Shown in pieces: positions 1 to 64,000 of a stretch of DNA of 64,000 nucleotides (positions within the stretch are counted from its first letter, which is position 1; each line of letters opens with the position of its first letter). A program made the translations under genes and the position numbers. A model generated the notes under the pieces. It saw only the letters and a program-made list of their open reading frames with translations, did not search any database and was not told the DNA's origin. The DNA comes from a virus, in the IMG/VR virus record IMGVR_UViG_3300042291_000666, positions 54,326-118,325 of that record; one strand, written 5' to 3'.

Positions 1-2
1 CT

Positions 3-1958
3 CCAGATCAAAGATATATTTCTGATTCAGCATATGTTGGTAAAGTAGATTTGATGACAGTATCTGATGTTGTAGATAAATACGGATATTTGATGAGCCA
101 AGAACAATTGGAATCATTACAAAGAATTTATCCGGCAAGATCTGCTCAATATCAAGTTAATGGATATCAAAATGATGGTTCTTATTATGATGCAACAAGA
201 TCACACGCTTGGAATACTAATGCCCCAGGTTTAGCATATAGACAATATACAAGTAACTACATGGCAGATCCTGCTAGAGGTGGTGATATATTAAATCAAA
301 TTTTAGGAGAGAGTGAAGACTTAGCTTACTTTGGTGATGGTAATTTAATGAGAGTATCTACAATTTATTGGAAGACTCAAAGAAAAATTGGACATCTTAC
401 TAAAATAGAATTTGATGGTGAAGTAACTCAAGAAATAGTTGATGAAACATTTAAAGTAACAGAAAAACCTGTTTATGATACATCAATCTTTAAAAATAAA
501 ACAAAAGATACTCTACTACAAGGAGAACATCTTGATTGGATTTGGATTAATGAGATTTGGGGTGGTGTAAAAGTTGGACCAAATGTACCTGCTATGTGGA
601 AGAGTTCTACAAGTAGTGAAATAAATCCAATATACTTGGGTATTAATAGAACTAAACCAGGTAGATTACCATTCCAATTTAAAGGAAACAATTCTTTATA
701 TGGTTGTAAGTTACCTGTAGAAGGTAGAGTGTTCTCTGATAGAAATACAAGATCTACTTCTTTAGTAGATTTAATGAAAGCATATCAGGTTGGATATAAC
801 ATGGTTAATAACCAGATTGCTGATATCTTAATTGATGAATTAGGTACAGTAATTATGTTTGACCAGAATGCATTACCACGTCACTCTATGGGAGAAGATT
901 GGGGTAAAAACAATTATGCTAAAGCATACGTAGCAATGAAGGATTTCCAAATGCTTCCTCTTGATACTTCAATTACTAATACAGAAAATGCTGTAAACTT
1001 CCAACACTACCAGACTCTAAACATGGAGCAAACTAGCAGGTTAATGAGTAGAATACAATTAGCAAATTACTTTAAACAACAATGTTTTGATGCAATTGGA
1101 ATTAATCCTCAGAGATTAGGTGGTCCGGTAGCAGCAGAAACAGCTACAGGAGTAATGAACGCAATGCAACAATCATATGCTCAAACAGAAATTTATTTTG
1201 TACAGCACTCTGATCAGTTAATGCCAAGAGTACACCAAATGAGAACAGACTTAGCTCAGTTCTATTATAGTACTAATCCAAGTGTAAGATTGAGTTATAT
1301 ATCTACTGAAGCAGAAAAGGTAAACTTTACAATCAATGGTACAGATCTTTTACTAAGAGACTTCAACGTATTTGCTACAACTAAGACAAATCATAGAGCT
1401 ATTCTTGAACAGTTAAAGCAAATGGCATTAACTAATAATACAACAGGTGCTAGTATATATGAACTTGGAAACATTGTTAAAGCAGATTCTATTGGTGAAG
1501 TAACAGATATCTTAAAAGATTCTGAAGCAAGAGTAAATGCTCAAAGACAAGAGGAAATGCAACAACAACGTCAAATGCAAGAACAACAGTTACAAGCACA
1601 GGCGCAAGAGGCTCAAATGAAAGTTCAGATGGAGCAAGAAGAAGCAGAGAAAAACAGACAGAAAGATATTACAGTGGCTGAAATTAGAGCTGCTGGATAT
1701 GGAGCTGGTGTAGATGTAAATGAAAATAAAATAAATGATTACCAGGATGCACTAAAAGATATTCAACAAACAACTCAATATAGAGAGCAAATGAATATGA
1801 AACGTGAAGAGATGGTAAGTAAGTCATCTACAGAATCTCAGAAACTTCAAGTTGAAAGAGAAAGAATTGCAGCACAAACACAGATAGCAAAGACGCAGTT
1901 AGATATAGCAATACAGAATAAAAACAAGTATGATAGCAAAAAACCAAAAGATAAATAA
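3..1958 (+). CDS. Portal protein (crAss-like), 5'-truncated by the window
   Basis: Frame is open from position 3, so the TTG at 51 is not the true start. Ends in a long Gln/Glu-rich coiled coil. Lies two genes upstream of the MCP, as in the Crassvirales capsid module. Confidence 0.8.
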   Translation, partial: PDQRYISDSAYVGKVDLMTVSDVVDKYGYLMSQEQLESLQRIYPARSAQYQVNGYQNDGSYYDATRSHAWNTNAPGLAYRQYTSNYMADPARGGDILNQILGESEDLAYFGDGNLMRVSTIYWKTQRKIGHLTKIEFDGEVTQEIVDETFKVTEKPVYDTSIFKNKTKDTLLQGEHLDWIWINEIWGGVKVGPNVPAMWKSSTSSEINPIYLGINRTKPGRLPFQFKGNNSLYGCKLPVEGRVFSDRNTRSTSLVDLMKAYQVGYNMVNNQIADILIDELGTVIMFDQNALPRHSMGEDWGKNNYAKAYVAMKDFQMLPLDTSITNTENAVNFQHYQTLNMEQTSRLMSRIQLANYFKQQCFDAIGINPQRLGGPVAAETATGVMNAMQQSYAQTEIYFVQHSDQLMPRVHQMRTDLAQFYYSTNPSVRLSYISTEAEKVNFTINGTDLLLRDFNVFATTKTNHRAILEQLKQMALTNNTTGASIYELGNIVKADSIGEVTDILKDSEARVNAQRQEEMQQQRQMQEQQLQAQAQEAQMKVQMEQEEAEKNRQKDITVAEIRAAGYGAGVDVNENKINDYQDALKDIQQTTQYREQMNMKREEMVSKSSTESQKLQVERERIAAQTQIAKTQLDIAIQNKNKYDSKKPKDK

Positions 1959-2087
1959 TTAGCGTTAGCTATATACTGCAAAAAACTTTGCAATATTATC
2001 AAATATAATAAGTTTAGGATAGTGTAAACTAAATAAAGAATTGTTATATTATATATATAAAGTATTAATTATTAAACCAACAATAAG

Positions 2088-3389
2088 ATGAGTACCAAAA
2101 ACAACACAATGAGTAGTAACGTAGAGACTTTAGATATTGACTTAGATACAATATTCAATGCAGCACCAAGCGGTGATGACATGACTTTGCCATCTGGAAA
2201 GGATACTAAATCTACAAACAACATTTTTTCAGGAATAAATAAGAAAGCAGATTTTTCATTTGCTGATCCAGATGCAGATGATGCAGATGATTTAACTGAT
2301 AAAGGTAAAACTCCAACATCAAGTGCAGATCTTCTTGCAGATGATGATAATGAGATTACACCTAAAGCAACTAAAGAAGATGGTAAAAGCATCCTTGATA
2401 GTTTAGGTGATGATGAAGATGAAGAAGAAAGAAAAGAAACTAGAGGTAGAAAACCTATTTCTGGAATTTCTGATGTCTTCTCTAAAATGATTAAAGAAGA
2501 TAAATTAGTACCTTTTGATGATGAAAAGTCTTTTGATGAATATACAGCAAAAGATTGGGAAGAATTAATTGAAGCTAATTTGGAAGAAAAAGCTAATCAA
2601 GTAAGACGTGAAACACCTAAACAGTTTTTTGCTAGCTTACCTGAAGAGTTACAAATTGCAGCAAGATATGTGGCAGATGGTGGTACTGACTTAAAAGGTT
2701 TGTTTTCCACTTTAGGTCAAGTAGAAGAAACTAAGGATTTAGATATTAAATCTGAAAGAGATCAGGAGATTATTATTAAAGAATATTTAAATGCTACTGG
2801 TTACGGTACTTCTGATGAGATTGCTGAGGAAATTGAAATTTGGAAAGATTTAGGAAAGCTTGAACAACAAGCTGCTAAGTTCAAACCAAAGTTGGATAAG
2901 ATGGCAGAACAAATTGTTATCAAAAAAGTGCAAGAGCAACAACTAAAACAAAAACAACAAGAGCAAGCTTCTAAAGCTTATATGCAAAATGTATATGATA
3001 CTTTAAAAGATGGTAACTTGGGAGATATTAAAGTTGATAGAAAAACTCAAGCAATGTTGTATAATGGTTTAGTTCAACCTAGTTATCCTTCAGTAAGTGG
3101 AAGAAATACTAATTTATTAGGACACCTATTAGAAAAGTATCAGTTTGTAGAACCAAATTATAAATTAATATCAGAAGCATTATGGTTATTGCAAGATCCG
3201 GAAGGATATAAAGCAAAGATCATGGATAAGGGAGCTCAACAAAGTATTGAGCAAACAGTAAGAAAACTAAAAACAGAACAGGGTAACCATAGTTCAAGTT
3301 CTCTTGGGATTCAAGATAAAGATGAAGAAACAAGAAGACAACCAACTAAAAAATTACCTAGAACCAACAACATTTTCAAACGGATTTAA
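2088..3389 (+). CDS. Putative capsid scaffolding/assembly protein
   Basis: 433 aa, very acidic low-complexity N-half and helical coiled-coil C-half. Sits between portal and MCP. Function inferred from synteny. Confidence 0.55.
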   Translation: MSTKNNTMSSNVETLDIDLDTIFNAAPSGDDMTLPSGKDTKSTNNIFSGINKKADFSFADPDADDADDLTDKGKTPTSSADLLADDDNEITPKATKEDGKSILDSLGDDEDEEERKETRGRKPISGISDVFSKMIKEDKLVPFDDEKSFDEYTAKDWEELIEANLEEKANQVRRETPKQFFASLPEELQIAARYVADGGTDLKGLFSTLGQVEETKDLDIKSERDQEIIIKEYLNATGYGTSDEIAEEIEIWKDLGKLEQQAAKFKPKLDKMAEQIVIKKVQEQQLKQKQQEQASKAYMQNVYDTLKDGNLGDIKVDRKTQAMLYNGLVQPSYPSVSGRNTNLLGHLLEKYQFVEPNYKLISEALWLLQDPEGYKAKIMDKGAQQSIEQTVRKLKTEQGNHSSSSLGIQDKDEETRRQPTKKLPRTNNIFKRI

Positions 3390-3434
3390 CAATCAAATAT
3401 ATAAACAATTAATAACTAAAAACAAGTAAAAATT

Positions 3435-5051
3435 ATGGCAACTCCAGTATTAAATAATGGGATTTTCCTAAGAGACACTAGCTACAAAGCAAGTTCTCAT
3501 GTTGATTCTTATCACTTGACTCAGATGCTAGGTTCAGCAGAACCTATGGATATGGGACCAATTGATTTATGGGCAATGACTCAAAAAGTTGAAATGCCTC
3601 TTTATCAAATGGCATCATTTGGTGGAAAGAATACTATCATGGTAGACAATGCTCGTGGTGAGTACAAATGGCAAACTCCTATTGCACAAGATCTTCCATA
3701 CATTGTGGCAGACATTGAACCAGCTAATGCCGCTAAAGGTGTAGATGGAACAACATTCAAAATTAAAATTTCTAAAAGAACATTTGGACATGGTGATATC
3801 ATCACTTATGACAAATACAATGGATTAGAACTTTACATCACAGCTGATGATATCATCCCTGCTGGTGACGGTTTTATCTATACTGTTCAATTAGTAAACA
3901 ACAACAACGTAGCTAGCTTAGACAATAAGTATTTAGCTAAAGGTACTAAGTTCTTCAGAAAAGGTTCTGCAAGAGGTGAGTACGGAGAAAGATTCTCTGA
4001 CATTGAAACAGGTTCTGGTTTCCGTGAGTTCTACAACTTTGTAGGAGGAGCTGAAGCACACGTACACTATTCTATTTCTAGCCGTGCTGATCTTATGATT
4101 AAAGGTGGTTTGAATGCAGATGGTACTGTACCTGTAACTGAAATCTGGAGAAACTTTGGTGCAAACAATGATCCTGCTGTACCTAGTATTGAAGGATTAA
4201 TTGCTAACATGGGTAAAGCTGGTGCAAGAGAAGCATTTGAAAATGGTTCATTGACTAGAACATTTATCACTAACATGGAAGCTGCGCATTTATCAAAAAT
4301 TGCTTCTGACATTGAAACTTACTTAATGTGGGGTAAAGGTGGTAGAATCAAACAAGATGGTCCAGATGATATTAGATTATCTGTGGGATTATGGGCACAG
4401 TTGGATAACTCATTCAAAAGAGTTTACAACAAGTCTTCTTTCACACTTGATATGTTTAAATCTGAATTGTATAACTTCTACCAAGGTAAAGTTGAGTTCA
4501 AAGGTCCAGATCCACAAAGATCACTTGTTGTTCAAACAGGTATTGGTGGTATGCAATTGATCAACAAAGCTATTGCTGATGAAGTATATGGTTCTGGTTT
4601 AGTACAAAATGCTAGTGATATTGGAGCTGTTAAAGGTTCTGGAATGGATCTAGATTATGGATTTGCTTACACTTCATTTACTATTCCTTTCTTAGCTAAC
4701 GTTAAGTTTGTATTGAACCCTGCGTTTGATAACTTGAATACTAATGATATTGAGAATCCATTAATTGATGGCCGTCCATTAAGTTCTTATAGCTTCATTA
4801 TCTTTGACGTAACAGATGAAGGAAATGATAACATCCATTTATTGAAATTATCTTGGGATAATCAATTGAAATGGTTCTACCAAAATGGAACTATGGATTA
4901 TATGGGAAGAACTCAAGGTTTTGCATCTACTGGTAACTTCAACGGATACCGTGTAATGATGTCACAAACTATGCCTGCTATTTGGGTTAAGGATCCAACT
5001 AAAGTTTTAAAAATTGTTATGAGAAACCCTATTACTGGTGGTTCATTCTAA
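3435..5051 (+). CDS. Major capsid protein (crAss-like)
   Basis: 538 aa, position after portal and scaffold. Codon usage visibly richer in C-ending codons (AAC, TTC, ATC), as expected for a highly expressed gene. C-terminal IWVKDPTKVLKI motif resembles crAss-like MCPs. Confidence 0.85.
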   Translation: MATPVLNNGIFLRDTSYKASSHVDSYHLTQMLGSAEPMDMGPIDLWAMTQKVEMPLYQMASFGGKNTIMVDNARGEYKWQTPIAQDLPYIVADIEPANAAKGVDGTTFKIKISKRTFGHGDIITYDKYNGLELYITADDIIPAGDGFIYTVQLVNNNNVASLDNKYLAKGTKFFRKGSARGEYGERFSDIETGSGFREFYNFVGGAEAHVHYSISSRADLMIKGGLNADGTVPVTEIWRNFGANNDPAVPSIEGLIANMGKAGAREAFENGSLTRTFITNMEAAHLSKIASDIETYLMWGKGGRIKQDGPDDIRLSVGLWAQLDNSFKRVYNKSSFTLDMFKSELYNFYQGKVEFKGPDPQRSLVVQTGIGGMQLINKAIADEVYGSGLVQNASDIGAVKGSGMDLDYGFAYTSFTIPFLANVKFVLNPAFDNLNTNDIENPLIDGRPLSSYSFIIFDVTDEGNDNIHLLKLSWDNQLKWFYQNGTMDYMGRTQGFASTGNFNGYRVMMSQTMPAIWVKDPTKVLKIVMRNPITGGSF

Positions 5052-5059: not shown

Positions 5060-5200
5060 ATTGTTAAGCTCCGCACCTCAGCTCTGGCCCTTCGGGGTCA
5101 TCTGGGGGGCGTCTTAGCAATACTGTGATAGGTTGGCCCATATCTCTATTCTGTGTGCATTGACAAGGGATGTCTAGCATGCTGGGGCCAGCTGATTCAC
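5060..5200 (+). ncRNA. Candidate structured RNA: two long imperfect hairpins followed by a U-tract
   Basis: GC-rich island. Hairpin 1: 5060-68/5113-21, 5076-81/5102-07, 5085-90/5095-5100 with a cUUCGg loop. Hairpin 2: 5125-28/5197-5200, 5131-39/5185-93, 5153-58/5177-82, 5162-65/5171-74. Many G-U pairs work only on the + strand. Confidence 0.7.
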
Positions 5201-5235
5201 TTTATTTTTTTTAACAAACTTAATTATAAAATATT

Positions 5236-17830: not shown

Positions 17831-18298
17831 ATGAAAAAACCAATTGCTAAAAAAGTTGCTGCAAAAAAGGAAGTAGCAAAAAAAGAAGTAGTAGAAAAGA
17901 AACCTATTGTTAAAACTCCTGTTAAGAAAGTTAAAACAATAAGTAAAATTGTAAAACCTCTATTTATAGAGGAACCAATTATTGAGATTAATTATAGTTG
18001 GGATATTGAAAGTATTGAAATCAATAACCTAACTAATGTTATTTCTCAAATAACCTATGAATTTATAGGTATTCTTATTGATCAAACACATACAATAAGT
18101 GGTACAATAGTAGTACCTAAAATCATTGATACTCATAGTAAAGTAGAAACAAGTGACTATAAGACCTTAACAAAACAAGAGATTATAGATTACATTATAA
18201 GCAAAGTATCTGAAAGACACCTGGATGTGATGAAAGATATGATTATCCAAAACTTCAAGGGAACTAAAATAATTGATAAAACTTTTTGGAAATCCTAA
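17831..18298 (+). CDS. Tail-fibre-associated protein (paralog 3) with Lys-rich N-terminal extension
   Basis: KKPIAKKVAAKKEVAKK N-tail, then YSWDIESIE...VISQITYEF...YKTLTKQEIIDY. Confidence 0.55.
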   Translation: MKKPIAKKVAAKKEVAKKEVVEKKPIVKTPVKKVKTISKIVKPLFIEEPIIEINYSWDIESIEINNLTNVISQITYEFIGILIDQTHTISGTIVVPKIIDTHSKVETSDYKTLTKQEIIDYIISKVSERHLDVMKDMIIQNFKGTKIIDKTFWKS

Positions 18299-55600: not shown

Positions 55601-57116
55601 GCCTGTTACATTCTTAACAGCAAGTGAAAACTTTCAATCAATACTAAGTGAAGTATATGAAAATGTAAATTCTAATTCAAATGATTTTAATGAAGAAGTA
55701 AGAACTAAAATATCAAAAGATTTATTGTCATACTTAACTATTAAAGCATATCAAGAAAATAAATTAAAAAATGATCCACAATCTGTGGCTACTTTAAATA
55801 ATGAGTTGATCTATCCTGGAGGAGGTTACCTATCAATTAATGATATTGTTGATAGATTACGCACAACAGAAGCAGGTCAAAATAATTTCTTCTTAGATAA
55901 CTTTGCAATAAATGTAAAAGCAAGTGATGCTAAAAATCAAACTGGTTTAAATACAGTTGATGCAAATACTTTTAGAAGTTTGAATGCTGGTCAAAAAGTA
56001 GATTTACAAAATTCATTTGCTAAACTATATGGTTCTTTAGAAACTAAAAATGATGCTTTATCTGTGATTAATTATATCATGGTTAAAGACGGATTACAAT
56101 TGGGTTATGCTTCTTTATTAGAAGCTATCAGTCCTTTTGTAATGGATGCATATCTAAGTCAAATTGAAACAGCAAATGTTGCGTTAAGAAGTAATGATGA
56201 TGCAAAAGTTAAAGAAGCCTTTGGTTTAAATACAGCAGAATTAAAATCTGATTTTGTTAATAATTATTTGTTATCAAATATAAATGGACCTTTATTGTAT
56301 ACATTTAACAGTAAGTTTGCACCTAAAGGGGTTAATGTAAAGAAAGAAAACAATATTACAACTGAAGTTAAAGTTGATTGGAATCAGATTAATGGTGGTA
56401 CACCTACACGTTTTATTAGATTAAAAACAGAAGATGTATTAGGTAATACCTCTTATGAAACTTTTGCATCTATATCAAAACCTGAATTAACTACACAAGT
56501 TTATAATAAGGTAGAAACAAAAGGCTCTAATCAACAAAACCCAATTGGATTTATGTTTGGAGAAAGACCTACATATAAAGCTGTAAGACAGATGATTAAA
56601 GCTAAAAATGCAAATACAGGTCAGGATGCATATGTAGACAGCGTGACTTATGAAGCAACAGAAAATTATGCATTATCAGCAACTGAAATGATTCAACTAG
56701 GTGCTTTAAATGATGAGAATGCTGACATTGAAGCAACTGAGTTTGGTGTTAACATTAATGGTAACAACATTGCTAATATTAGTGCAATGGAAGCATTGCT
56801 TGCTGCTGAACCAAAAGAAAAAGCAGAAGAGATTGAGTCAGATATTACTGAAATTGGTGAAGCAACAACACTGCTTGATTCAATGAGTGATCTTGAAAGA
56901 GAGTTGTATGACGAGATGAATGCTGAAATAGAAAGTGATTATTCAGCAATTGAAAATTTCTGGGATGCTAACATTCAAAAAAACTCAGAAGCTAAAGAAA
57001 ACTTGAGAGTAAATAATAATGTATTATCTTTGGAAGATCTTATAGATATGTACAACAATGGTATATATGCAAATCAAGAAGAATTTATTGATCAAATTAA
57101 AAAATGTAATCTATAA
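43608..57116 (+). CDS. Giant virion-packaged RNA polymerase protein (hydrophobic N-region, zincin domain, single-chain RNAP)
   Basis: 4502 aa. RIPSQ...SGADFDIDK (DFDID at 54198-212) is the catalytic motif of crAss-like RNAPs (phi14:2 gp66 type). HEAFH (49764) plus EEYLADEF is a zincin motif. Hydrophobic Gly/Ala helices lie near the N-terminus. Confidence 0.9.
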   Translation: MENQVQNNSLDQTIINNQVSEDVIPKDNSFESVKEMFNTPVNDILMSKMDVAAFEQLDLLKPMIDATGMRSNGNGAARRPTLATNTFDPVLQQNPPNINEPGGIQRMMEQKVKTGFQQRQANRAPGTGIASPTFSSMQQTNFKRYYEHPEFQTLGWKPYADNEAYYNANSTIYDDMSRMWGQFGSLVGTGFMSGYRAIGDMVTGGSNVVDLKSANEFEEAMAIGSSSREGGMAWTNNLLLNSGYTVGIISSIALEEVALAALEVGTFGGATPLVAGRTTLNAARLAEAVGRATTVGRMASSGRTMMNTLKGIDTAKDFWQASKLGGKAVASIFAPGTIAAVNRLHTTEVVAQNLNNLAKASEYAGAFYRDVRALNLALSESKLEAGMVFNQMMKDGMNIKYAENNGGSVTSEQMSDIANNAHKAAFATEMWNMPAIFLTNKLVLGNSLGGFNKSLGRIFNEQASGVGNRIIKTAQTVGKDGIKALSPFKDAGTGLKGLATTIANAGVKGNITKLGQGSLRYFAANLGEGIQELSQEAISVGTKNYYTSVLKDPMNGGPELYKASVNAGLGSQLSAQGFDTFMSGFLMGGVVSGPQKLFFQGVPALYQRVSNPEKFAQYKQDRTDYIKKVVDTYNAVWNAQAEDPNSIFDAKRFNFLQQKAAAEYKTLSAFAMDRFYFTDETDFAKFNQIHTVLSTGGAALFQDQLADYMKMSDQDLAEAFPSSKADVKNGKIRERLQSMINQIDSTEEIYQKSKDRNPNPFTPDSYEKGSREWQQESIKKIAFEHARYLYMFTQDGFTRALERSNSIFQNLATEPLFDKMAANDLTVLLDERSIDNEIQMLMQEADILSQDKANDSKVKDKTEKVKRLLSFKIVLSENQNKDGSFDKRKINLLRKEFESYVKHMAEASGTFVNKDAVDDALKQIIDYTALKGRAKMYDKAIEYLNNPEKFNEVFERSAEVIQDEFKNRKKRFEEQVLAYTDVIERNELANQIAKAGFIPANDEMKMFLETGDTKYLKTFYNQKGEVLDSRDKLDLEEIQALLNTYEQTRPDKKVEEDVKDEEEIAEEGRADIDDILVTAGVTTEVSVKNSSLLDNAIKKAYDKYSAMETRAGKKPMSLENWITGDGGKNLRATFIAVKRIWVENDLLINPNNPLTEQEIENETKFLPWLQSQEGKTNDLVQAVVNAVGLTIEDITGQVELLPAQGENIEGNENATVVEKGEVISLIELNTVDPDGNTFKSYQLVDQYKQPLDEETLTRYDIPTLGIYDEASKAEGIKMQKALNDLIPDSTKFTFAGATLNYGQLIYDKTGLEFIILSDPKQIKKDGKLLIIPSNEISPIIKETERSTQPITAKEFTNSFSVQDLNVKLLPSNVARLNINEPIQPYPYRNKDAGTDDWSETNEQAIARYNLIMSVLTPEEVSGLELVVSADPEGGTEGPLLFIPGSKEANPYIQTVRAKYSVGIRIANPAVQAKVDAIVEKMGLTKSTSTNGVFAFMQNNNFVITNSQGTVIDPVNMTMDEYKNIIYIPEGMVKNPETDLKRAQDNFALNNVLSAALPGLVAKYPNGIIPMSELPNGLSFVYKEAVMMYDKSPKSLTDLQFNAADINGNYLIYQSEIVRDEDGKPVKPFQRTKIAISNLEGQARRQLINEVEANLSEEDLAKLVSGQDAYNAIVLMPDGKYKVVNLKAKSIDKASLIEKFTAIINKAQLTLTENPEKSDSFNKNANSDYNQNLANEIFVSTKNGYKISLQVSPWGKIELDLYDTVNKKKLGVVRLKPTAKASVDEQLKTLLDDFNALPGVIDAGIKITPENFRESFPRDISAKDLIEKTTTEVAPKVASNSKIELSGDSSAIQTAVNIPISTQGTFTPTETFTDAQGNSIPKGPELTTAATPEEVADNVNADNINPEDINIDEINLLRNAVRLSNLEDVKQQLETLKAKLTEGLVGAAKIKAVKESKEYADLLAKRKKLESEANKVVSVQDAIVDAEDIDVFTEWAAASLPEFISIEDIETLGNNLKAGGVRVGAFVLGLNNIGGGLTVNGTLFTGAKSPFKYHEAFHGVFRMLLTDAEIKKYLAIARKEVRAKLRAEGKSFEAELQRFKNSADTYSNMSRERLEQEYYEEYLADEFEKFKANAKSTQTDSSVKSLFTRIMEWIKSVFNSFTKNQLLTLYENIDAGKFKTASITSNQFVNSLMTGISLEANALIPYDTEQNANNKVGYYFLDSVIAEPLVSGIAAMYIQEIAKVKDPNVKRGDILDNVINDFAALYDEESESNQNLSDDQKKFLPQISEVFYNFSDELKAEVFKVLNIITKQTQEEEYNNEYFEEQVGLRNTEQYNMDASMIGGFGSLSEGLRSYLATTTIAETDYFGNKELKPGVKLIVPINFVSAYNGLLKAVKNIEDPKKMLQNMYFFGLDNPQTGAVVTRLLQDFGLSVETLLEPGPLPTKIKNAALFQSVVKGFTTFRVDYLFVQRDDAGAVLIYSAAERDDINSQLESWSQAWGQAEKKIKADPKVRKETLDTLEDFASYLQPSDKIISDAELTELSSQYSQDIFRLTGIKLSKQFIVFSIASSRNNPTPMQAALINAYSEQTPVNYNDMLEINKLIQDGSDLFSEGKKGAESRIKKLAIQNAAFDETIGASVFKNPEGNLVYAHQLPTFHLKRIQELNDVAELERLKESDPYLANNFLLNSEAFLQMSAENRQKVLRIAGSSVGKINNTEEELNDKISGVSNKSTYGNYTPQEFTLSILNTYTALLNTKSNKVEYVEYFDNKLNKNVRSALAPVLLRVLEASNTGDLMYLPVIKAVKFEKAGGGKVVLTDETVNIFVDNIKNEYNRITRESNPETRTEETQLGYNTENGRAFKLTNTGLFVTPDLKASLETIATRENAPSFEEALKELNITDNKFRSIVNQQLENQYDKFSKGLNDLQIEDQLSKSITEGLAVDKKGDKNLIDSAELLNLTYDKEYNLKQIFFNDWVNTLSINEVLLGDQAVTLKDGVDAVKRAKMQNAAYYSAYSSIMAEDMGVMHTVDDISLVALEEPVGVSALTGKNIDRSDAQMWMTTKAFRYMWFGFGKLNPAQAKLIDKIEAGEKITSEELFGQDGYVDMGSMLNSKKLVYGDGKTFIKMSAFVLTPELTSNKVVDENGNVTWVAKETRSELHDLRMKLEGIEALPGKQTLGIAAPLSALKMLKQRVQTLNRVGEDKAFEEGDYTTLSAKYMGLQVLTPSNKTEVIDATQVKNIVTSEQKDDVFVEALGMTVGQIRAAYNLATSTKVELKFKNKRNLIFSFDKGMQELAISKENNKLTPNLTAFLRYATEGLKASQASSNLLEFFSTQDGEQKYDLNNPITLNKFEQLFLSYLSKGTLAEKAPGHAVALVSDFGTKVYRRVFSVDENGIPDRSEVIRENVWNSLANKPDIIESTNIGGERSWSGIKIPKEGIVVLDRLRSGVKEYDKDGKFTGERYTEMLMPAHFKSVMDLVENANGSFPDVLSKMFGVRIPSQDNHSTINIKHVDFLPAFYGSSAMFAQELIEISGADFDIDKVYMQIKEFYEEGGQFYEYGKQTTENGKYTDYLKYVSEKVKVSGTTYAEAVELYDKDEQGATIENSVTDVEEEIASDAGLSEDGIKALKILGLPITKEQYSEYKKKFREPYEAPMNNAILDYKYALMGNTGVTETTNENETPISYTAASLQILTDELKALEQLLPGLLERSREDDIDINNMIGKIKAFTNNKGAAIGAIVLPNVYLSLLTEYGIKINPDGPQITINGVTYNDFGVTREQLANGLEGLRKQDIISALITMATDNAKERLVAKLGLNKHALGVVANLTALGVPIKTSLLLINNPMIQDIYSQALNKKNKLDPGVPTLVDNMIVELLEKTKAIKKDDLEKTLANMGIDFTTYDEVTDAFLIDAFNNPEEVTDKEKIAILNLFSNAVKVKDFTSNMSAIAGLTNGLGKDISAVNEKALQIDKLFDEKAMMDLKPIYKSNTWQSKYLDIFNQIKNELLPVTFLTASENFQSILSEVYENVNSNSNDFNEEVRTKISKDLLSYLTIKAYQENKLKNDPQSVATLNNELIYPGGGYLSINDIVDRLRTTEAGQNNFFLDNFAINVKASDAKNQTGLNTVDANTFRSLNAGQKVDLQNSFAKLYGSLETKNDALSVINYIMVKDGLQLGYASLLEAISPFVMDAYLSQIETANVALRSNDDAKVKEAFGLNTAELKSDFVNNYLLSNINGPLLYTFNSKFAPKGVNVKKENNITTEVKVDWNQINGGTPTRFIRLKTEDVLGNTSYETFASISKPELTTQVYNKVETKGSNQQNPIGFMFGERPTYKAVRQMIKAKNANTGQDAYVDSVTYEATENYALSATEMIQLGALNDENADIEATEFGVNINGNNIANISAMEALLAAEPKEKAEEIESDITEIGEATTLLDSMSDLERELYDEMNAEIESDYSAIENFWDANIQKNSEAKENLRVNNNVLSLEDLIDMYNNGIYANQEEFIDQIKKCNL

Positions 57117-57122: not shown

Positions 57123-60100
57123 ATGGCAAGATGTCCTAATAAAAACGCACCGGAATATAAAGCTTTACAAGAAGTTTATAAAAGTGAAATTGCAACAAAC
57201 AATATTATCAATACTTGGCAAGATGCAAACAACACAGATGTTTTTCCTACTGTAGTTGAAGCAAAGCAATTTGCTCAAAACAATAAAGTTGCTTTTGCAT
57301 TAAAACAAAAAAGTTTTGCTGAGAGCTTATTAAATAATTTAAGAAACAAAAAACTTATTCATAGTGAATTTGGTTTAAATCTTATCAATGCTTCAGATCC
57401 AAACGTTTTTTATACTGAAAGAGTTGCTGATTCAGCAGTTGTTGAAGATAACAAAAGAAAAATAGAGCAATATCTAAAGACTAATAATATTCCTTTAGAT
57501 GCTATTTCTATTATAAAGACTGATAAAACATATAAGATTATAGTTGATCAAAATGTTTTTACACCAAAAGATTTATTACCATCATCTAGAGCTTGGGATA
57601 CGCCAAGAGCTAGAGCAGTTGTAATGCATTTGATGAGAATGTTTCCTGAAGTAAAAGTTAAAATGCTTAGTCCTACTGAAGCTGAAGCTCTTTATAATAC
57701 AATACCAAAAAGTGATAAAAGTAAAGTCAACTTTAAAAATGTAAATTCATTTTATTATAAGAATGTTGCATACCTGGTTAAAGGGAGAGTTACAGATGAA
57801 ACTGCAATTGAAGAAATGCTTCATCCTTTCATTGATGCAATTAAACTAGATAACCCGCAATTATTTAATGGGTTACTTACAGAAGCTAAAGCAAACTTTC
57901 CGGAGATGGTTCAGTCTATTACTGAAGCATACAATGCAAATAGAAACTTTAGTCAATTAGAAAGAGATCTTGAAATAGTAACTCAAGCATTATCTAGACA
58001 TTTTAATAATGAATATGAAACAACTCCAACTAAAAAATTCTTAGATAAAATCAAAGAAGCTTTAGAGTGGTTTGCAAAAGTCATTAATAATTTAAATGAA
58101 TATATAACAGGTAAACCTTTAACAGTAAAAGCTATTAATAATAATACTACGTTTACTGATATTGCTAAACTTTTAAATACAGAAGGTATAAGCTTTAATC
58201 TGGGTACAAGTTCAAATGGAAAAGTAAGATATTCATTATCACCAGCAAAACAAAAAATTGTAAATACTGTATTAGCAACAGCTAATCCAATTCAAACACA
58301 AATAATTAAAAATTTATTTCATGTTGCTACTAATTCTAAACAAGAAATAGATTCATTATCTGTAAACATAAGTGATACTAAATCTGCAAATACAATTGTT
58401 GTTCTTAATGAAGAAGATCATACATATGTTGATATTACTAACCGTGATATTTATAAATCAGCAACCACAGCAATTAAAGGTCAGCTTAAAAATCAAGAAG
58501 AAGTTCAACTTAATTTAGTTGTTGGTAATGAAGTAGATGCATTATTAGATTCTTTAGTATCTAATGAATCATTTGAAGAAGCTTTTCTTAAAATGAAACT
58601 TTTAACTAAAGAACAAGCTGAGAAAGTATTTAACATGTTACAAGATCAGCTTACTCAATTAAAGCCTTTAAACTCTGTTGCTATTTCACAAGTTGTTGTA
58701 TTTGATGAAGCAACAAGAATTGCAGGTACAGCAGATTTAGTTATTATAGATGAGTATGGTAGAATAAGAATTGTTGACTTAAAAACAAGTAAGTCTTCTA
58801 TTAAAGATATGTTTAGCAAAACTGTAAAGCAGAATAACATACCACAAAAACTATCAGGCACAAGATATGAAATGCAAGAGTATGATTTAAATGAAGATTC
58901 TTTTGTCTTAGATAAAAATGGTAAACCTGTTTTAGATGCAGATGGTAATCCAATAGTTGAATTTCTTGGTAGTGATCTAAAAAAACTTTATGGAATAGAA
59001 AAATTATCTACTAGAGGTCAACATGGTTTACAAGTAAATCTTTATAGACGTATGTTTGAAAACATGGGTTATACGGTTTATGAAGGTGATGAAGGTGCTG
59101 TAACTATTCATATAAGAGCAGACATAACAGGTAAAGGAAAAGATCAGGTATTTAATGGTACATTTGAAATAGACGGTAAAGTAGAACATCCATTACTTAT
59201 AAATCATAAACCATCAGAAAACTTACTTTATGTTAATATGCTTATTCCATCTGTAGAAATACTTGATAAAAGTATTAGTGCAGCAGAGGATGCTATTTAC
59301 CGTGGTAGTGAAGATATAGAAGCTATGGAGCAACTAGCTGATACAGTAGAAGCTCAACAGTATTCTGAGTATAATACTATTACAACTGCATTAGAAAACT
59401 ATGCTCTTGCTTTAGTAGAACAAGATAAAGCTTTGGATAAACTTAAAAATAATGTATTTAGAGATAAAACCAAAGAGCAAACCAGAGATGATATTGCAAG
59501 TACGTTAGCCTATATTGCTAGTAATATTAATACAGGACCGATAGCTAGATCTCAAACATATACTCAATTATTAAGAAGCTCTTTAAATCAAATGCAAAAA
59601 TTTAGAGAGTATGTTGAAAATCCAGATAATGTAAGTAAACCGGAATACATCACATATGTTTTAAACTTTGAAAGATTTTTAAGTACATTTAATGCTTTAT
59701 ACGCAATTAAAGATTCTAAAGAACTTAATGCTACTCAAAGAACATTGGTTCTTCAAATGCAACTTGAACATAATAAACTTGTTGGACCTGACAAAAGTGA
59801 AGGTTTAATCAATGATGCTATTATAAACTATGTAAAAGAAACCATCAGACTCAGATCAAGTAATGATTGGGGTGGAAAAGGTAGTGCCTTTACACAAGAT
59901 ATGTTGGATGACCTTATGGTTATGGCTCCTGATATTGCAATGGATGCATTAAATGCTCAAGATATGGCTACTCAAAAAGATCCTATACTTGCTGTAATGG
60001 ATAAAATATATAAGAGTCAAAAACAAAAACTTTTAGATAGAATAGAAGAAAGAGAATACTCAATTAGGAATGCGGGTAATACTTTATTAAAATTATCAGC

Positions 60101-62915
60101 AAATAAAGATTTACAAAGTCTTTATGACTTTATGTTAGAGTATGATAAAGATGGTCTTTTCTCAGGCTTTTATACACAAAAAATTGGTGTACAATATAAA
60201 AATATTCAAGAATCATTAAGAAGTAAACTTTATGATTCAGCTGGTCAACCTTATACATATAGAGATGTTACTGATTTAAGTACAGCAAAACCTGAAGATA
60301 TTCAATATAACATTGATTTGGCTAAAAACAAAGCTGCTTTTAGTAAATTCTTTGAAGCTGAAACTGTAGCTGAAGATGGTACTATAACCACTGGTGAGTT
60401 TCATAAATATACTCAAGAATTTATTGATGCTAGAAATAGATTTGAAACACCAACTATATATAATAATAAACAAGGTGTTTTTTGGACAAGAAAAAAGAAT
60501 ATATCTGAAAGAGATTGGAGTATTTATCAAAATAAATATTATGACTTTGTTGATTATACACAAGCATTAAAAGTTAATGGTGAACCAACCGGTGTAATAA
60601 ATACAAAAAAGACGGGTGCTTTTCCAAAAGTTCAATTTAGAGAAGCGTTAGAAATAACCAATCCTAAAGAAGGAGAACCTCAAGACATGCGTAGTGAAAA
60701 GTATAGAGCATTAATGGATCCAAATAAAACAGATGCATTAAGTGTTGCTCAAAGAGATTTTTACAACATGTTCATAAAATACTATGAAAAAGAATTATTA
60801 AATAAATTACCACAAGGAATTAGGAATCAAATGATGGGCCGTGTTCCTGTGATTAAAAATAATATTTTAGATACATTAAAAGGTCAACCAAATGTTGTTA
60901 CTAAAATGTATGCTGATATGGTTAGAGGTGTTAAAAACTTTACACAAGATACAGCAACTCAAAAGAATGTTGCGTTTGATGAAAATGGTAATTTTGTTAA
61001 TGCTCTTCCTGTTTTTTATACTGGTAAATTAAGAATTGATGGTGAACTTAAAGAGATTGAAGCAGAAATAACAGCATTAAAAGATGAACATAGAAAAGGT
61101 ACAATTGGACCAGAAGCTTTTAAGAAAAAATTAGCTTTGCTTAATGGAACAGCAGCACAACTTAGAGCTCAACCATCAGTAGGTGAACTTAATAAAGATA
61201 TGACTTCAGGTTTACTTAAGTTTAGTGCAATGGCTGAACATTATGAAGTAATGGGTGAAATTGAAGATACCCTTACTGCCATGGTAGAGGTTATTGAAAA
61301 AAGAAAATATACACCAGCTGATGCTGCAATAAGTTTAGGTACTACAATTGACAACAAATTTAAAAAAGCAGGAACAATTAAAGGTGCTGATTCAAATGCC
61401 TTAAAAAGAGCTAAGAAATACATGTCAATGATTTATTATGACAATGAACTTGTTTCTAAAAAAATGGTTGATAAATTAGCGGATGAACTTATAGGTATGT
61501 CTTCATTAGCTTATGTAGCATTTAACCCATTTGGTAACCTTAATAACTATGTTATGGGTAGAATCAATAATGGTATTGAGGTTTTGGGTAGTAGATATTT
61601 TTCTAAACAATCTTATGTAAGAGCAACCAGAGAATATAATACTGAGGGTGTTAAAGGATTGTTAGATAGAGTTTCTGCTGGTGCAGTTGATTTAGCTGAC
61701 ATAGCTACAGCAGGAAAAGCAGGTATAAAGAAAGCAGATTATGATTCAGATCTACCCAACAATAAATATGAAGCTTTAGTAAGTTTTATGAGAATGATGG
61801 ATAAAGCGTCTGATATACGTCAGACTACTTCTGAATTTGATAGCAGATCTGTTTGGTCAAGATTTAAAGAATGGGGTTATGTGATGCAAGATGCCGCTGA
61901 ATATAATGTTCAATCTAAAGTTGGTATGGCAATACTTATAGATACTACAATTAAAAATAGTAAAACTGGTGAAACATTATCTCTTTATGATGCATTTCAA
62001 TATAATTCTGAAACACATAAGGTTGAATTAATAGATGGGTATGATACTATTGTAACTAAAAGTGGAACAGAAAAACCATATACTGATCAATTTAGATATG
62101 ATTTAAGAAATGAAATCAGAGAGGTTAACAAACAAATCCACGGTAACTACGCTGCAGAAGACAGAATGGTTTTACAAAGTCATACTTTAGGTAATTTAGC
62201 AACACAGTTTCACAAGTGGGTAGCTCCTGCAATTAGAGCTAGATTTAGAAGAGAATACTTTGATCAAAACTTAGGTTGGTTAGAAGGCCGTTATAGATCT
62301 TGGTGGAAGTTTATGGGTCATGTTAAACGTGAAATGGTAAGAGGTAACATTAGTGTGAATCCTGCTAACTATAATGAGAGCTTTAAAGAAGCTTATGGTT
62401 TTACCGGTGAAGGTGGAAACATAGATCAAAAGGCTGAAGATAAACTTAGAGGTTTTTACAGAACTACAGGTGAACTTGGTATTATGTTAAGTGTTGTTGT
62501 ATTAAATGCACTATTAGCTGGTATACTTGCTAATGATGATGATGATGAAGAGTTAACTAAAAGATTGAAAAATGTTATAAGACTACAAGGAGATAGAACA
62601 TACAAGGAGATGGTTTTATATACACCAACACCAACTGGTCTTCAACAACAATATCAATTAATTAAAACTCCAATTGCAACTGCAAGAACAATAGGTGAAT
62701 TAGGTGAAGCATTAAACTTAACTCTTCAAACACCAATTGCAAGATTGTATCTAAGCAAAGAAGAATTTTATGCAGATAAGGATTATGTATATCAAAACAA
62801 ACCTAACAAAGGTCAATTAAAGTTATACAAAAACTGGGCTGACGTTGTTCCTATTTTATATTCAATACAGAAATGGGAGAATATGATTAAAGCACAAGAC
62901 TTCTATATCAAGTAA
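57123..62915 (+). CDS. Large cargo protein with degenerate zincin, PD-(D/E)xK nuclease-like domain and C-terminal hydrophobic helix
   Basis: 1930 aa with EEMLHPF, IAGTADLVIID...IVDLKTS...QVNLY (from 58719) and GIMLSVVVLNALLAGILA near the C-terminus. Confidence 0.75.
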   Translation: MARCPNKNAPEYKALQEVYKSEIATNNIINTWQDANNTDVFPTVVEAKQFAQNNKVAFALKQKSFAESLLNNLRNKKLIHSEFGLNLINASDPNVFYTERVADSAVVEDNKRKIEQYLKTNNIPLDAISIIKTDKTYKIIVDQNVFTPKDLLPSSRAWDTPRARAVVMHLMRMFPEVKVKMLSPTEAEALYNTIPKSDKSKVNFKNVNSFYYKNVAYLVKGRVTDETAIEEMLHPFIDAIKLDNPQLFNGLLTEAKANFPEMVQSITEAYNANRNFSQLERDLEIVTQALSRHFNNEYETTPTKKFLDKIKEALEWFAKVINNLNEYITGKPLTVKAINNNTTFTDIAKLLNTEGISFNLGTSSNGKVRYSLSPAKQKIVNTVLATANPIQTQIIKNLFHVATNSKQEIDSLSVNISDTKSANTIVVLNEEDHTYVDITNRDIYKSATTAIKGQLKNQEEVQLNLVVGNEVDALLDSLVSNESFEEAFLKMKLLTKEQAEKVFNMLQDQLTQLKPLNSVAISQVVVFDEATRIAGTADLVIIDEYGRIRIVDLKTSKSSIKDMFSKTVKQNNIPQKLSGTRYEMQEYDLNEDSFVLDKNGKPVLDADGNPIVEFLGSDLKKLYGIEKLSTRGQHGLQVNLYRRMFENMGYTVYEGDEGAVTIHIRADITGKGKDQVFNGTFEIDGKVEHPLLINHKPSENLLYVNMLIPSVEILDKSISAAEDAIYRGSEDIEAMEQLADTVEAQQYSEYNTITTALENYALALVEQDKALDKLKNNVFRDKTKEQTRDDIASTLAYIASNINTGPIARSQTYTQLLRSSLNQMQKFREYVENPDNVSKPEYITYVLNFERFLSTFNALYAIKDSKELNATQRTLVLQMQLEHNKLVGPDKSEGLINDAIINYVKETIRLRSSNDWGGKGSAFTQDMLDDLMVMAPDIAMDALNAQDMATQKDPILAVMDKIYKSQKQKLLDRIEEREYSIRNAGNTLLKLSANKDLQSLYDFMLEYDKDGLFSGFYTQKIGVQYKNIQESLRSKLYDSAGQPYTYRDVTDLSTAKPEDIQYNIDLAKNKAAFSKFFEAETVAEDGTITTGEFHKYTQEFIDARNRFETPTIYNNKQGVFWTRKKNISERDWSIYQNKYYDFVDYTQALKVNGEPTGVINTKKTGAFPKVQFREALEITNPKEGEPQDMRSEKYRALMDPNKTDALSVAQRDFYNMFIKYYEKELLNKLPQGIRNQMMGRVPVIKNNILDTLKGQPNVVTKMYADMVRGVKNFTQDTATQKNVAFDENGNFVNALPVFYTGKLRIDGELKEIEAEITALKDEHRKGTIGPEAFKKKLALLNGTAAQLRAQPSVGELNKDMTSGLLKFSAMAEHYEVMGEIEDTLTAMVEVIEKRKYTPADAAISLGTTIDNKFKKAGTIKGADSNALKRAKKYMSMIYYDNELVSKKMVDKLADELIGMSSLAYVAFNPFGNLNNYVMGRINNGIEVLGSRYFSKQSYVRATREYNTEGVKGLLDRVSAGAVDLADIATAGKAGIKKADYDSDLPNNKYEALVSFMRMMDKASDIRQTTSEFDSRSVWSRFKEWGYVMQDAAEYNVQSKVGMAILIDTTIKNSKTGETLSLYDAFQYNSETHKVELIDGYDTIVTKSGTEKPYTDQFRYDLRNEIREVNKQIHGNYAAEDRMVLQSHTLGNLATQFHKWVAPAIRARFRREYFDQNLGWLEGRYRSWWKFMGHVKREMVRGNISVNPANYNESFKEAYGFTGEGGNIDQKAEDKLRGFYRTTGELGIMLSVVVLNALLAGILANDDDDEELTKRLKNVIRLQGDRTYKEMVLYTPTPTGLQQQYQLIKTPIATARTIGELGEALNLTLQTPIARLYLSKEEFYADKDYVYQNKPNKGQLKLYKNWADVVPILYSIQKWENMIKAQDFYIK

Positions 62916-62944
62916 TTATATGCAATTGCATATTGCAATACGCA

Positions 62945-62957: not shown

Positions 62958-62989
62958 AAAACACTATATGTAGAAACATATAATGAATG

Positions 62990-63034
62990 AAAAAGCCATC
63001 ATTAAACCCTAAAAAAGGACTTAGTGATGGCTTT
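62990..63034. terminator. Terminator between convergent modules (best U-tract on the - strand)
   Basis: AAAGCCATCATTAA (62992-63005) / TTAGTGATGGCTTT (63021-34), a 14-bp stem between two converging genes. Confidence 0.7.
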
Positions 63035-63107
63035 AACATACATTATTAGGTTTGTTTTTATACTGTGAGTATAAATATTTTCTATAAACTAAACCTATAG
63101 GTTGATT

Positions 63108-63998
63108 TTATCCTTCACAACTTGCACAATCTAGAATATTTCTGGCAAATTCTTGAGCTGAACTTTGACTAAATTGATAGTACAAAGTTTTAACTCCTTC
63201 CTCATGCGCGTATAAATACAATTGATTAATATCTTTAGCTGGAACAGATGGGTGAATCATTAAGTTAAGTGACTGAGACTGATCAATAAACTTTTGTCTT
63301 TGAGCTGCCTGCAAGATTAACTCTTTAGGGGTGATCTCAATGAATGACTTGAATACTGCTTTTGTAGGAAAATCTAAGTGTTGAACTGAGCCATCCTTTT
63401 TCAAGATGCTTTTCCATACTTCCGGGGTATTCATACCATACTTATCTAACTCACACTCTAAGAAAGGATTCTTATAGATAGTCTTAGACTTGGCCAGATC
63501 TTTAATAAAGTAATTTGATTTGATTGGTTCAATTCCCATACTCACTTGTCCCAAGATGAATGAGCTTGATTTAGTAGGAGCAATTGCAATTAATGTTGAA
63601 TTAGCATAACCTTTTCTAATTGACTCAACACCTTTAGAATCATGCAACCATTTGGAGGCTGCCTCACTTTTATCTTTAAGTGCTTTAAAGATCTGAGAGT
63701 TTAACATCTTAGCTTCCAAGGAATCAAACTCAATCAATTTAGATTGAAACAGGGAATGGTATCCTAGTACACCTAAACCAATTGCTCTATGTTGACTTGC
63801 AAATCTATATGCTCTCTTCATACCGGGCATTACAGCAGACTTCTTAATGAACTCATCCATCACAGCATTTAAAAATAATGTGTAAGTTTCAATAGCGTCT
63901 GTGTTTTTCATCTCTTCCCAGTGCAGCAGGTTGATAGATCCTAAGCAACAAACAAATGAATTAAATGAATCTGTTGGCAACTGAATCTCAGAACATAA
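63108..63998 (-). CDS. nrdA: Ribonucleotide reductase class Ia alpha subunit, 5'-truncated
   Basis: Frame is open to the window edge and reads LCSEI (catalytic NLCxEI), then VCCLGSINL, AIAPTKSSS, QKFIDQSQS, KTLYY and C-terminal CASC. Confidence 0.93.
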   Translation of the reverse strand, partial: LCSEIQLPTDSFNSFVCCLGSINLLHWEEMKNTDAIETYTLFLNAVMDEFIKKSAVMPGMKRAYRFASQHRAIGLGVLGYHSLFQSKLIEFDSLEAKMLNSQIFKALKDKSEAASKWLHDSKGVESIRKGYANSTLIAIAPTKSSSFILGQVSMGIEPIKSNYFIKDLAKSKTIYKNPFLECELDKYGMNTPEVWKSILKKDGSVQHLDFPTKAVFKSFIEITPKELILQAAQRQKFIDQSQSLNLMIHPSVPAKDINQLYLYAHEEGVKTLYYQFSQSSAQEFARNILDCASCEG

Positions 63999-64000
63999 AT

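Follow-up and report, generated by a model that had tools for sequence, protein, structure and literature searches.

The phage and the window

We analysed 64,000 nucleotides of viral DNA (the window), which span positions 54326 to 118325 of one contig of 118,325 bp (IMGVR_UViG_3300042291_000666) that is classed as complete in IMG/VR and carries direct terminal repeats. Our subject is the near-total lack of the trinucleotide TCG and its complement CGA in this DNA, which an original prediction, made by a model from the sequence alone, had ascribed to strong selection against a very short DNA motif. The phage is crAss-like (Crassvirales), as seen from its Crass-type capsid, its muzzle protein and the very large genes that follow the tail genes; the capsid and muzzle genes are located as follows (positions, here and below, are those of the window unless given as genome positions):

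3435-5051, + strand: major capsid gene (Crass_capsid, E 6e-30), used as the marker for finding relatives and for codon-by-codon comparison
25125-31223, + strand: Crassvirus muzzle protein gene (crAss_MUZ, E 7e-28), an open reading frame (ORF) of 2032 amino acids

Downstream of the muzzle gene lie ORFs of 1403, 722, 858, 1088, 4502 and 1930 amino acids. A simple greedy ORF call gives a coding density of 92.6% with the standard bacterial code, and all but one of the genes in the window are on the + strand.

TCG and CGA are nearly absent from the whole genome

The dinucleotide CG is scarce in the window (315 occurrences, where the original prediction had estimated roughly 300; ratio of observed to expected, O/E, 0.20), and both TG (O/E 1.29) and CA (O/E 1.22) are overrepresented. 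Our recount reproduced exactly the four TCG (3653, 5092, 8409 and 14137), the four CGA (11069, 20216, 56912 and 59539) and the complete absence of TCGA that had been listed. On both strands taken together, TCG is seen 8 times against 189.15 ± 12.54 expected, each of 100 dinucleotide-preserving shuffles containing more, and TCGA is expected 27.75 ± 5.31 times. Since such shuffles already contain the scarcity of CG, the lack of TCG goes beyond it, and O/E is nowhere near 1, the value that would have spoken against the original prediction. The lack is also strand-symmetric, with 4 TCG against 80 expected and 4 CGA against 110 expected. Over the whole genome of 118,325 bp there are 7 TCG, 16 CGA and no TCGA, where a first-order Markov model expects 195 TCG and 209 CGA (23 sites in total against about 405), while the next most depleted trinucleotide has an O/E of 0.58. 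The lack is even over all 5-kb bins, including 34 kb that are transcribed from the opposite strand, and it extends to the tetranucleotides that contain either word: TCGC is found 0 times, TCGT 1, TCGG 6, CCGA 1, GCGA 3 and ACGA 12, with tens of each expected. Expressed as the ratio (TCG+CGA)/CG, the shuffled window gives 0.60 (189/315) and the window itself 0.025; in the rest of the genome the corresponding counts are 7/128, 1/95 and 7/101.

Other words with a CG core are not avoided. ACGT and CCGG, which the original prediction had described as tolerated, are at or above the shuffle level (63 vs 35.0 and 41 vs 8.0), GCGC is found 10 times against 12.3, CCG and CGG are enriched twofold, and several copies of GATC are visible in the capsid gene. 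The excess of ACGT, CCGT/ACGG, GCGT/ACGC and CCGG arises because, in the shuffles, TCG and CGA take up a share of the CGs. If CGs preceded by T or followed by A are set aside, the other nine NCGN words are, by arithmetic on the genome counts, as expected from independent flanks. We therefore rejected the excess of CCGG as a signal of its own, it being the product of two flank enrichments. A separate avoidance of GGCC (18 vs 50.6 ± 6.5) was rejected as well, because it fits the low GCC and GGC (O/E 0.58 and 0.60) and may be an effect of codon usage, not of avoidance of another site. The avoided unit is thus the non-palindromic 3-bp word TCG/CGA, and no further word among those counted is avoided. 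An assembly or base-calling artefact was also rejected: independent contigs from IMG/VR and GTDB share the lack, the reading frames are intact, and the differences from relatives are synonymous.

Codon pairs enforce the avoidance in all three reading phases

It had been claimed that the avoidance acts at synonymous sites, beyond any avoidance of the TCG and CGA codons and beyond CG scarcity, and the counts at codon boundaries bear this out. These figures are hand counts from match lists and ORF starts, and the background was read by eye from 200 codons of one gene (43608-57116), where the third codon position is T in 90, A in 95, G in 11 and C in 4, and the first is T in 45, A in 57, G in 74 and C in 24. 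The base that precedes the 60 in-frame CGT codons of the + strand is A in 33, C in 17, G in 9 and T in one, where the background would give about 27 T and one C; in other words, T makes up 45% of third positions yet stands before CGT once in 60, whereas C makes up 2% yet stands there in 17. The excess of C arises because two-fold codons ending in a pyrimidine can escape T only via C. The six C-ending codons that had been pointed out before CGT (4020, 4080, 4770, 32591, 54531 and 58440) are indeed in frame and C-ending, their first two letters having been read for 4020, 4080 and 4770 only. The capsid gene contains four such pairs, at 4020-4025, 4080-4085, 4770-4775 and 4947-4952, with TTC, AGC, GGC and TAC before CGT.

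The other two phases across a codon boundary (marked here by a hyphen) behave in the same way. NNC-GTN occurs 33 times and NNC-GAN once, although GAN codons (16/200) are at least as common as GTN codons (13/200), and NCG-T occurs 27 times and NCG-A twice, although codons starting with A (57/200) outnumber those starting with T (45/200). Within codons, TCG and CGA are each used once in the window. The contrasts at codon boundaries are 20- to 30-fold, as hand counts set against a small background sample. TCG and CGA are hence avoided in all three reading phases through the choice of codon pairs, and codon usage alone was rejected as an explanation, out-of-frame occurrences being as rare as in-frame ones.

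The sites that remain in the window, with phases worked out by hand from the ORF starts, are the following:

3653-3655, + strand: TCG as NNT-CGN (GCT-CGT) in the capsid gene, the only one of the 60 in-frame CGT codons to be preceded by T
5092-5094, + strand: TCG, intergenic, in the UUCG hairpin loop of a G+C-rich structured insert that is absent from five relatives
8409-8411, + strand: TCG, the only in-frame TCG (Ser) codon of the window, in the ORF 7911-9374
14137-14139, + strand: TCG as NTC-GNN, in the tail-fibre-like gene 13257-16721
11069-11071, + strand: CGA as NCG-ANN
20216-20218, + strand: CGA, the only in-frame CGA (Arg) codon of the window
56912-56914, + strand: CGA, the only NNC-GAN
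59539-59541, + strand: CGA as NCG-ANN, in the cargo-protein gene 57123-62915

Five of the seven genic sites are thus out of frame. At the site at 3653, relatives have GCA-CGT in five cases and GCT-AGA in one. A recurring CGA upstream of the capsid gene in relatives was considered as a conserved regulatory element and rejected, since it proved to be a variable Arg codon or intergenic triplet (CGA, CGC or CGG).

Intergenic DNA, about 7% of the genome, holds 6 of the 23 residual TCG/CGA (genome positions 574, 4192, 11624, 13623 and 41851, and window position 5092). The last of these is accounted for by the structured insert, a G+C-rich stretch of about 140 nt (5060-5205) between the capsid gene and the next gene, which has a fold energy of -61.6 kcal/mol (z -4.4 vs shuffles), a hairpin with a UUCG loop and a run of T at its end. 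It contains the sole intergenic TCG of the window and 3 of the window's 18 GGCC; five relatives have only a short terminator hairpin at this position, and no Rfam family matched the insert, perhaps a non-coding RNA or a small element that has inserted here.

In the capsid gene, CG is kept while its flank is replaced

We compared the capsid gene codon by codon in an alignment of the window and nine relatives, grouped as strongly depleted (the window, L001, L022 and L038), intermediate (L007, L014 and L036) and weakly depleted (L050, L056 and L074). Read by eye, the alignment holds one TCG/CGA site in the window, one in L001 and none in L022 or L038, as compared to 9 in L056, 12 in L050 and 11 in L074. 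L074, the least depleted, has T before CGN at four of five homologous Arg codons (CCT-CGC, TTT-CGT, AGT-CGT and GGT-CGT), while L050 and L056 have GCT-CGY at the first of these codons only and elsewhere C-CGT, A-CGT or N-AGA. At the homologous codons, the depleted genomes have GCA-CGT, TTC-CGT, AGC-CGT and GGC-CGT or GGA-CGT, or else use AGA for Arg. At NTC-G and NNC-GA sites the exchange runs the other way, T-ending codons being used in the depleted genomes where the less depleted relatives have C.

Retention of CG with replacement of the flanking T is not what deamination of C would produce, since that would give Cys or His codons; moreover, third-position C being at only 2%, a change from T to C runs against compositional drift. 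Simple decay of CpG by methylation and deamination was accordingly rejected, the flanks of the surviving CGT codons having been reshaped (C in 17/60, T in 1/60). This single gene indicates that the trinucleotide itself, rather than CpG, has been selected against.

The depletion is graded among relatives and is not seen in sampled bacteria

Relatives of the capsid are encoded in at least 597 IMG/VR stretches, and the clade is common in metagenomes; we compared the best 80 of these, with capsid identities of 79-100%. Across these 80 loci the ratio (TCG+CGA)/CG ranges from 0 to 0.56: four loci have no TCG/CGA at all, 34 have a ratio of at most 0.10, 43 lie between 0.10 and 0.35 and three at 0.43-0.56. 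Close relatives may differ strongly. At 96% capsid identity the values run from 1/103 (L022, 0.01) to 36/157 (L007, 0.23), which is more than twentyfold, and at about 80% identity both 6/83 (L080) and 88/158 (L074) are found. Lower CG density accompanies a lower ratio across the clade, as expected if a purge removes some of the CGs.

More distant relatives in GTDB bins (62-77% identity) are mostly normal (L088 242/473, L091 29/60, L092 166/280 and L093 46/97). Two of these, L088 (11.3 kb, 76% capsid identity) and L092 (7.0 kb, 62%), are CG-rich DNA (473 and 280 CG) with normal TCG, and the wider clade spans very different base compositions, presumably with different hosts. A megablast search of 20 kb against 50,697 phage records found no matching isolate phage; the closest isolate capsid proteins are those of Leptolyngbya phage Lbo-JY46 (28.5%) and Cellulophaga phages (25.6%). 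The two isolate crAss-like phages compared do not show the lack, with 144/195 (0.74) and a CG O/E of 0.34 in Cellulophaga phi4:1 and 179/373 (0.48) and a CG O/E of 0.50 in Lbo-JY46. Since these isolates are CG-poor yet normal in TCG, a CG-poor baseline is ordinary for such AT-rich phages, and the TCG/CGA rule is not.

The bacteria sampled do not show it either. Relatives had been binned into five bacterial genomes, 11 stretches of which give a ratio of 0.44-0.68, with counts near those of their own shuffles (333 vs 350, 263 vs 308, 167 vs 204 and 398 vs 420). All of 78 further bacterial loci, from Patescibacteria, Flavobacteriaceae, Piscirickettsiaceae and others, have at least about 8 TCG/CGA per kb (range 8-58), against 0.125 per kb in the window. 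A host sharing the depletion would have pointed to a lineage-wide mutational bias; the 11 co-binned stretches and 78 loci show no such lack, as stand-ins rather than proven hosts.

The Bacteroidota, named as candidate hosts in the original prediction, are plausible and unproven hosts. The bins that contain relatives are labelled Clostridium, Campylobacteraceae, Pseudomonadales, Rickettsiales, Micavibrio, Bacteroidia and Chitinophagaceae (twice), which conflict with one another, and the nearest cellular homologues of the phage ribonucleotide reductase (62-66% identity) are split among Patescibacteria, Flavobacteriaceae and others. Comparison of 20 kb of the window with 401 Bacteroidota genomes gave no convincing match, neither to a spacer of clustered regularly interspaced short palindromic repeats (CRISPR) nor otherwise. 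At 16545-16718 and 17832-17890, where the tail-fibre-like gene ends (Peptidase_S74) and the next genes start, short nucleotide matches to many Bacteroidota genomes accumulate (75-100% over 25-84 nt, E 4e-8 to 1e-3); AT-rich sequence may produce them by chance, or they may point to a module in common.

Candidate agents encoded by the phage

We searched five complete genomes for genes that could protect the DNA or attack it: G000, the weakly depleted G006, and the strongly depleted G007, G008 and G009. None of the five encodes a C5 (PF00145) or N4/N6 (PF01555) methyltransferase, the methyltransferase families covered being these two, and none encodes a thymidylate synthase/dCMP hydroxymethylase (PF00303) or a TGT/DpdA (PF01702) protein. 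A phage methyltransferase or modified bases were thus rejected as an explanation, and avoidance is the only visible protection of the phage DNA. Among the early genes searched, no PHROGs or Pfam match to nuclease or anti-restriction genes was found.

The nuclease domain that the original prediction had put forward as a possible agent, in what appears to be a cargo protein, is located as follows:

58533-58802, + strand: PD-(D/E)xK nuclease domain (PDDEXK_1, E 1.7e-5), amino acids 471-560 of the 1930-amino-acid protein encoded at 57123-62915

With 25.3 bits, the domain lies above the family cut-off of 22. All five records searched for the protein (four complete genomes and the phage contig of the G002 bin) encode it, at 30-51% identity; D199 and D213-L214-K215 (D..DLK) are invariant in all five, including G006, and QVN(M/L)YRRM (QxxxY) follows downstream in the three sequences that reach that far. 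We take these motifs to be the catalytic D...(D/E)xK and the QxxxY of the RecB/Cas4 type. The structure model of the domain has a mean pLDDT (predicted local distance difference test) of 59 and no fold match at E <= 0.001; its top-ranked, weak matches are EXO5, AdnAB, MGME1, Cas4-family proteins and AddAB (E 0.004-0.1), with Type II restriction enzymes at E > 1. A second PD-(D/E)xK protein of 270 amino acids (genome 49431-50243) is present in all five relatives at 70-79% identity, and searches of PDB sequences with both proteins returned nothing usable. Family membership and conserved motifs suggest that the cargo domain is a PD-(D/E)xK nuclease of the RecB/Cas4/EXO5 type. It is as intact in G006 (capsid-region ratio 0.33; L049, 57/173 CG) as in G007 (0.023), and nothing ties it to TCG, so that its proposed role as the TCG agent found no support. 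A swap of DNA polymerase was likewise rejected as the cause of the variation, because all five genomes, weakly and strongly depleted, have the same polymerase family (63-79% identity). Nothing that we found in the phage tracks the degree of depletion; changes of specificity in these fast-evolving proteins are possible.

Other features of the genome

The tail region and the left arm of the genome carry further recognisable modules.

13257-16721, + strand: tail-fibre-like gene with a Peptidase_S74 chaperone region at its end

The 1403-amino-acid protein encoded directly after the muzzle gene (31223-35434) combines LysM, L,D-transpeptidase (YkuD) and lytic transglycosylase (SLT) domains and is likely an ejected protein that remodels the cell wall. 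The replication module in the left arm comprises ribonucleotide reductase, a deoxynucleoside monophosphate (dNMP) kinase, a recombination-type PD-(D/E)xK exonuclease, a DnaG-type primase, DnaB, UDG, an SNF2 helicase and the DNA polymerase. The large and small subunits of ribonucleotide reductase are encoded at window 63108-63980 (- strand) and genome 871-1851 (- strand), that is, at both ends of the linear record beside the terminal repeats, and form one module on the circular map. Two tRNA genes, tRNA-Leu(TAA) and tRNA-Arg(TCT), lie left of the window on the minus strand (genome 37144-37230 and 37354-37428). They read TTA and AGA, A-ending codons that the genome favours, and the T-loop of both is TTCAAAT, not the G-containing form that would create TCGA.

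Discussion

The lineage to which this phage belongs has been selected to lose 5'-TCG-3'/5'-CGA-3' from its duplex DNA wherever the protein sequence allows, and selection against a very short DNA motif, as originally proposed, is the best reading of counts that lie so far from expectation. TCG and CGA are equally rare although nearly all genes lie on the + strand, which argues for DNA as the target, an RNA-level cause having to recognise two motifs. As to what has exerted the selection, we tentatively favour, at somewhat less than even confidence, a host-encoded DNA-targeting activity with specificity for TCG or a TCG core that part of the clade would meet and part would not.

Such an agent would act on double- or single-stranded DNA rather than on mRNA or translation, and could be a host nuclease, a nickase or a DNA-modifying defence enzyme. 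Each TCG would multiply the risk of being hit, so that every site would be selected against independently. Sites have been removed by giving CGN a C- or A-ending codon in front in place of a T-ending one, by replacing CGN with AGA, and by exchanging C-ending for T-ending codons before codons that start with G; the phage's own tRNA-Arg(UCU) would help to read the AGA codons that replace CGN. A phage with neither a methyltransferase nor a pathway for modified bases would in this way escape passively, by not carrying TCG, and relatives on hosts that lack the activity would drift back toward a normal TCG content. A bolder proposition, which we regard as possible but rather doubtful, is that a DNA-targeting enzyme that recognises the three bases TCG, be it a nuclease, a nickase or a base-modifying defence, exists in some environmental bacteria or in the phages themselves, its site being shorter than that of any prokaryotic restriction system known to us, and that this widespread clade rewrote a 118-kb genome in response, removing about 95% or more of the sites.

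Several points weigh against a host enzyme as the cause. We know of no restriction, nicking or modifying enzyme of TCG specificity. In a 118-kb genome without depletion, a 3-bp target would occur about 1,900 times, and survival of the first steps of the purge is hard to explain. CGs with other flanks are about one third rarer here than in L074 (4.8 vs about 7 per kb), and a pure TCG rule thus does not account for all of the pattern. The comparative evidence consists of one gene in ten sequences, the background codon composition of 200 codons of one gene, and the repeated gain and loss in the clade that we suppose is suggested by capsid identity values. Finally, the bacteria examined come from bins that happened to contain relatives and whose labels disagree.

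An unlikely alternative, though the one that survives best, is self-avoidance: a phage nuclease would cut host DNA at TCG, for shutdown of the host and recycling of its nucleotides, and spare the phage's own depleted DNA. The phage encodes three PD-(D/E)xK proteins, one of them within a large protein near the muzzle gene, together with ribonucleotide reductase and dNMP kinase, which phages that recycle host DNA often carry, and DNA with the 8-58 TCG/CGA per kb of the sampled bacteria would be shredded. Virus nucleases with a preference for three nucleotides exist (PMC3017599, PMC2095790). However, both the cargo domain and the 270-amino-acid protein are catalytically intact in G006, which keeps several TCG/CGA per kb; PDDEXK_1 and the best fold matches (weak, at E >= 0.004 and pLDDT 59) represent end-processing exonucleases, not site-specific enzymes; the known precedents shield their own DNA by modification rather than by avoiding a word; and for a phage not yet purged, gaining such a nuclease would be suicidal.

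We also consider it improbable that context-specific mutation, by a deaminase preferring TC, by deamination of sunlight-induced dimers at TCG or by a polymerase bias, with or without selection against the damage, produced the pattern. The scarcity of CG and the excess of TG and CA fit such a process, deamination at TCG within dimers induced by ultraviolet light (UV) is fast, and the T of the window where less depleted relatives have C, at NTC-G and NNC-GA, lies in the direction of deamination. In human DNA viruses, APOBEC3 is reported to leave a TC footprint at codon boundaries (PMC7449416, PMC4999249). At T-CGN Arg codons, in contrast, CG is kept and T gives way to C or A, C standing before CGT in 17 of 60 cases against a background of 2%; a process that destroys C cannot be the cause where C is kept and T is replaced. 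Moreover, CCG is likewise a dipyrimidine site and yet is enriched, as is CGG, differences of more than twentyfold separate relatives with 96% capsid identity, the same family of DNA polymerase serves weakly and strongly depleted genomes, and the sampled bacteria are without the lack.

It is more doubtful still that the pattern is the sum of several ordinary restriction sites of 4-6 bp that contain TCG, rather than of one 3-bp target. TCGA is the most completely missing word (0 vs 27.8 in the window, 0 in 118 kb), and it is well established that phages and bacteria avoid palindromic restriction sites (PMC4687349). Against this, all TCGN and NCGA are nearly absent, a covering set of enzymes being implausible, and the palindromes ACGT, CCGG and GCGC are not avoided.

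Avoidance of a protospacer adjacent motif (PAM), with TCG or CGA as the PAM of the host and its loss leaving fewer targetable sites, appears very improbable. Depletion of a PAM would be strand-symmetric, and three-letter PAMs exist and have been reported as depleted in phages, yet the log ratios reported are about -0.1 to -0.2 (PMC4246573), as compared to the roughly 24-fold lack found here. Each removed PAM would, moreover, bring little gain, and the comparison of 20 kb of the window with 401 Bacteroidota genomes yielded no spacer match. A cause at the level of RNA or translation, such as the rarity of the TCG and CGA codons (one each in the window, with a phage tRNA-Arg(UCU) present) or an RNase cutting UCG or CGA in mRNA, is scarcely credible, since five of the seven genic residual sites are out of frame, out-of-frame sites are as rare as in-frame ones, and a word and its complement missing from one transcribed strand would call for two RNA motifs. 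What probability remains we leave to a cause that we have not thought of.

In the motifs that it avoids, a phage keeps a fossil record of the attacks on its DNA. The near-complete removal of a 3-bp word, specific to one clade, implies a DNA-recognising activity of very short specificity that is outside the catalogue of defence and takeover systems, and it shows how far a constraint at the level of DNA can bend the choice of synonymous codons and codon pairs, the use of C-ending codons before CGT being eight times more frequent than expected. TCG is an exact sequence with which tests can be made, the relatives cover the whole range between full depletion and normal TCG content, a natural series in which the host factor might be sought, and a TCG-specific enzyme, if there is one, would be useful as a frequent cutter or as a probe of CpG context.

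Comparison with known systems

We came across no description of crAss-like phages avoiding TCG/CGA in the literature covered, most subscription journals and supplements lying outside that coverage. That restriction sites and PAMs are avoided is known, whereas we did not find described a near-total purge of a 3-bp non-palindrome through codon pairs, over more than 100 kb and graded across a clade.

The DarT system offers a likeness in that a host defence marks a very short single-stranded motif, which would select strand-symmetrically. The known DarT motifs are T-rich and differ from TCG, and we know of no report of motif purging as an answer to DarT. This defence toxin is described as acting by sequence-specific ADP-ribosylation on DNA that is single-stranded (PMC5179494), and the counter-defences in two further papers are antitoxin-like proteins encoded by phages (PMC11481870, PMC11825919).

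The footprint of APOBEC3 resembles our case as the depletion of a short word, visible above all at codon boundaries. The APOBEC3 system is, however, eukaryotic and its word is TC rather than TCG; in the phage, the flanking T is replaced and the C kept, and the depletion of TC by APOBEC3 is far shallower than the lack of TCG. That footprint is ascribed to a host defence that edits DNA (PMC7449416, PMC4999249). In the case of CRISPR, a motif of 2-5 nt is depleted on both strands by host immunity, but by a few tens of percent at most (PMC4246573), compared to about 24-fold here.

Frequent-cutting nucleases of 2-4-nt specificity are known from viruses. The chlorella-virus nickases Nt.CviPII (CCD) and Nt.CviQII (RAG) have three-letter specificity (PMC3017599), and T4 endonuclease IV has a preference for dTdCdA in single-stranded DNA (PMC2095790, PMC1635256); nucleases of three-letter specificity thus exist in conflicts between virus and host. 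Chlorella viruses and T4 protect their own DNA by methylation or hydroxymethylcytosine, while the phage analysed here has no modification gene among those searched for and would be protected by the absence of the word. No homologue of these enzymes was found in it, no search aimed at one having been made.

The nearest parallel in form is the avoidance of restriction sites by phages without a methyltransferase, which shares with the present case a strand-symmetric, many-fold lack, synonymous changes, and differences between close relatives. The known cases concern words of 4-8 bp, mostly palindromic, and identified enzymes, whereas the word purged here is a non-palindrome of 3 bp, and of the several hundred to roughly 1,900 sites expected, the purge has by our estimate eliminated at least 95%.

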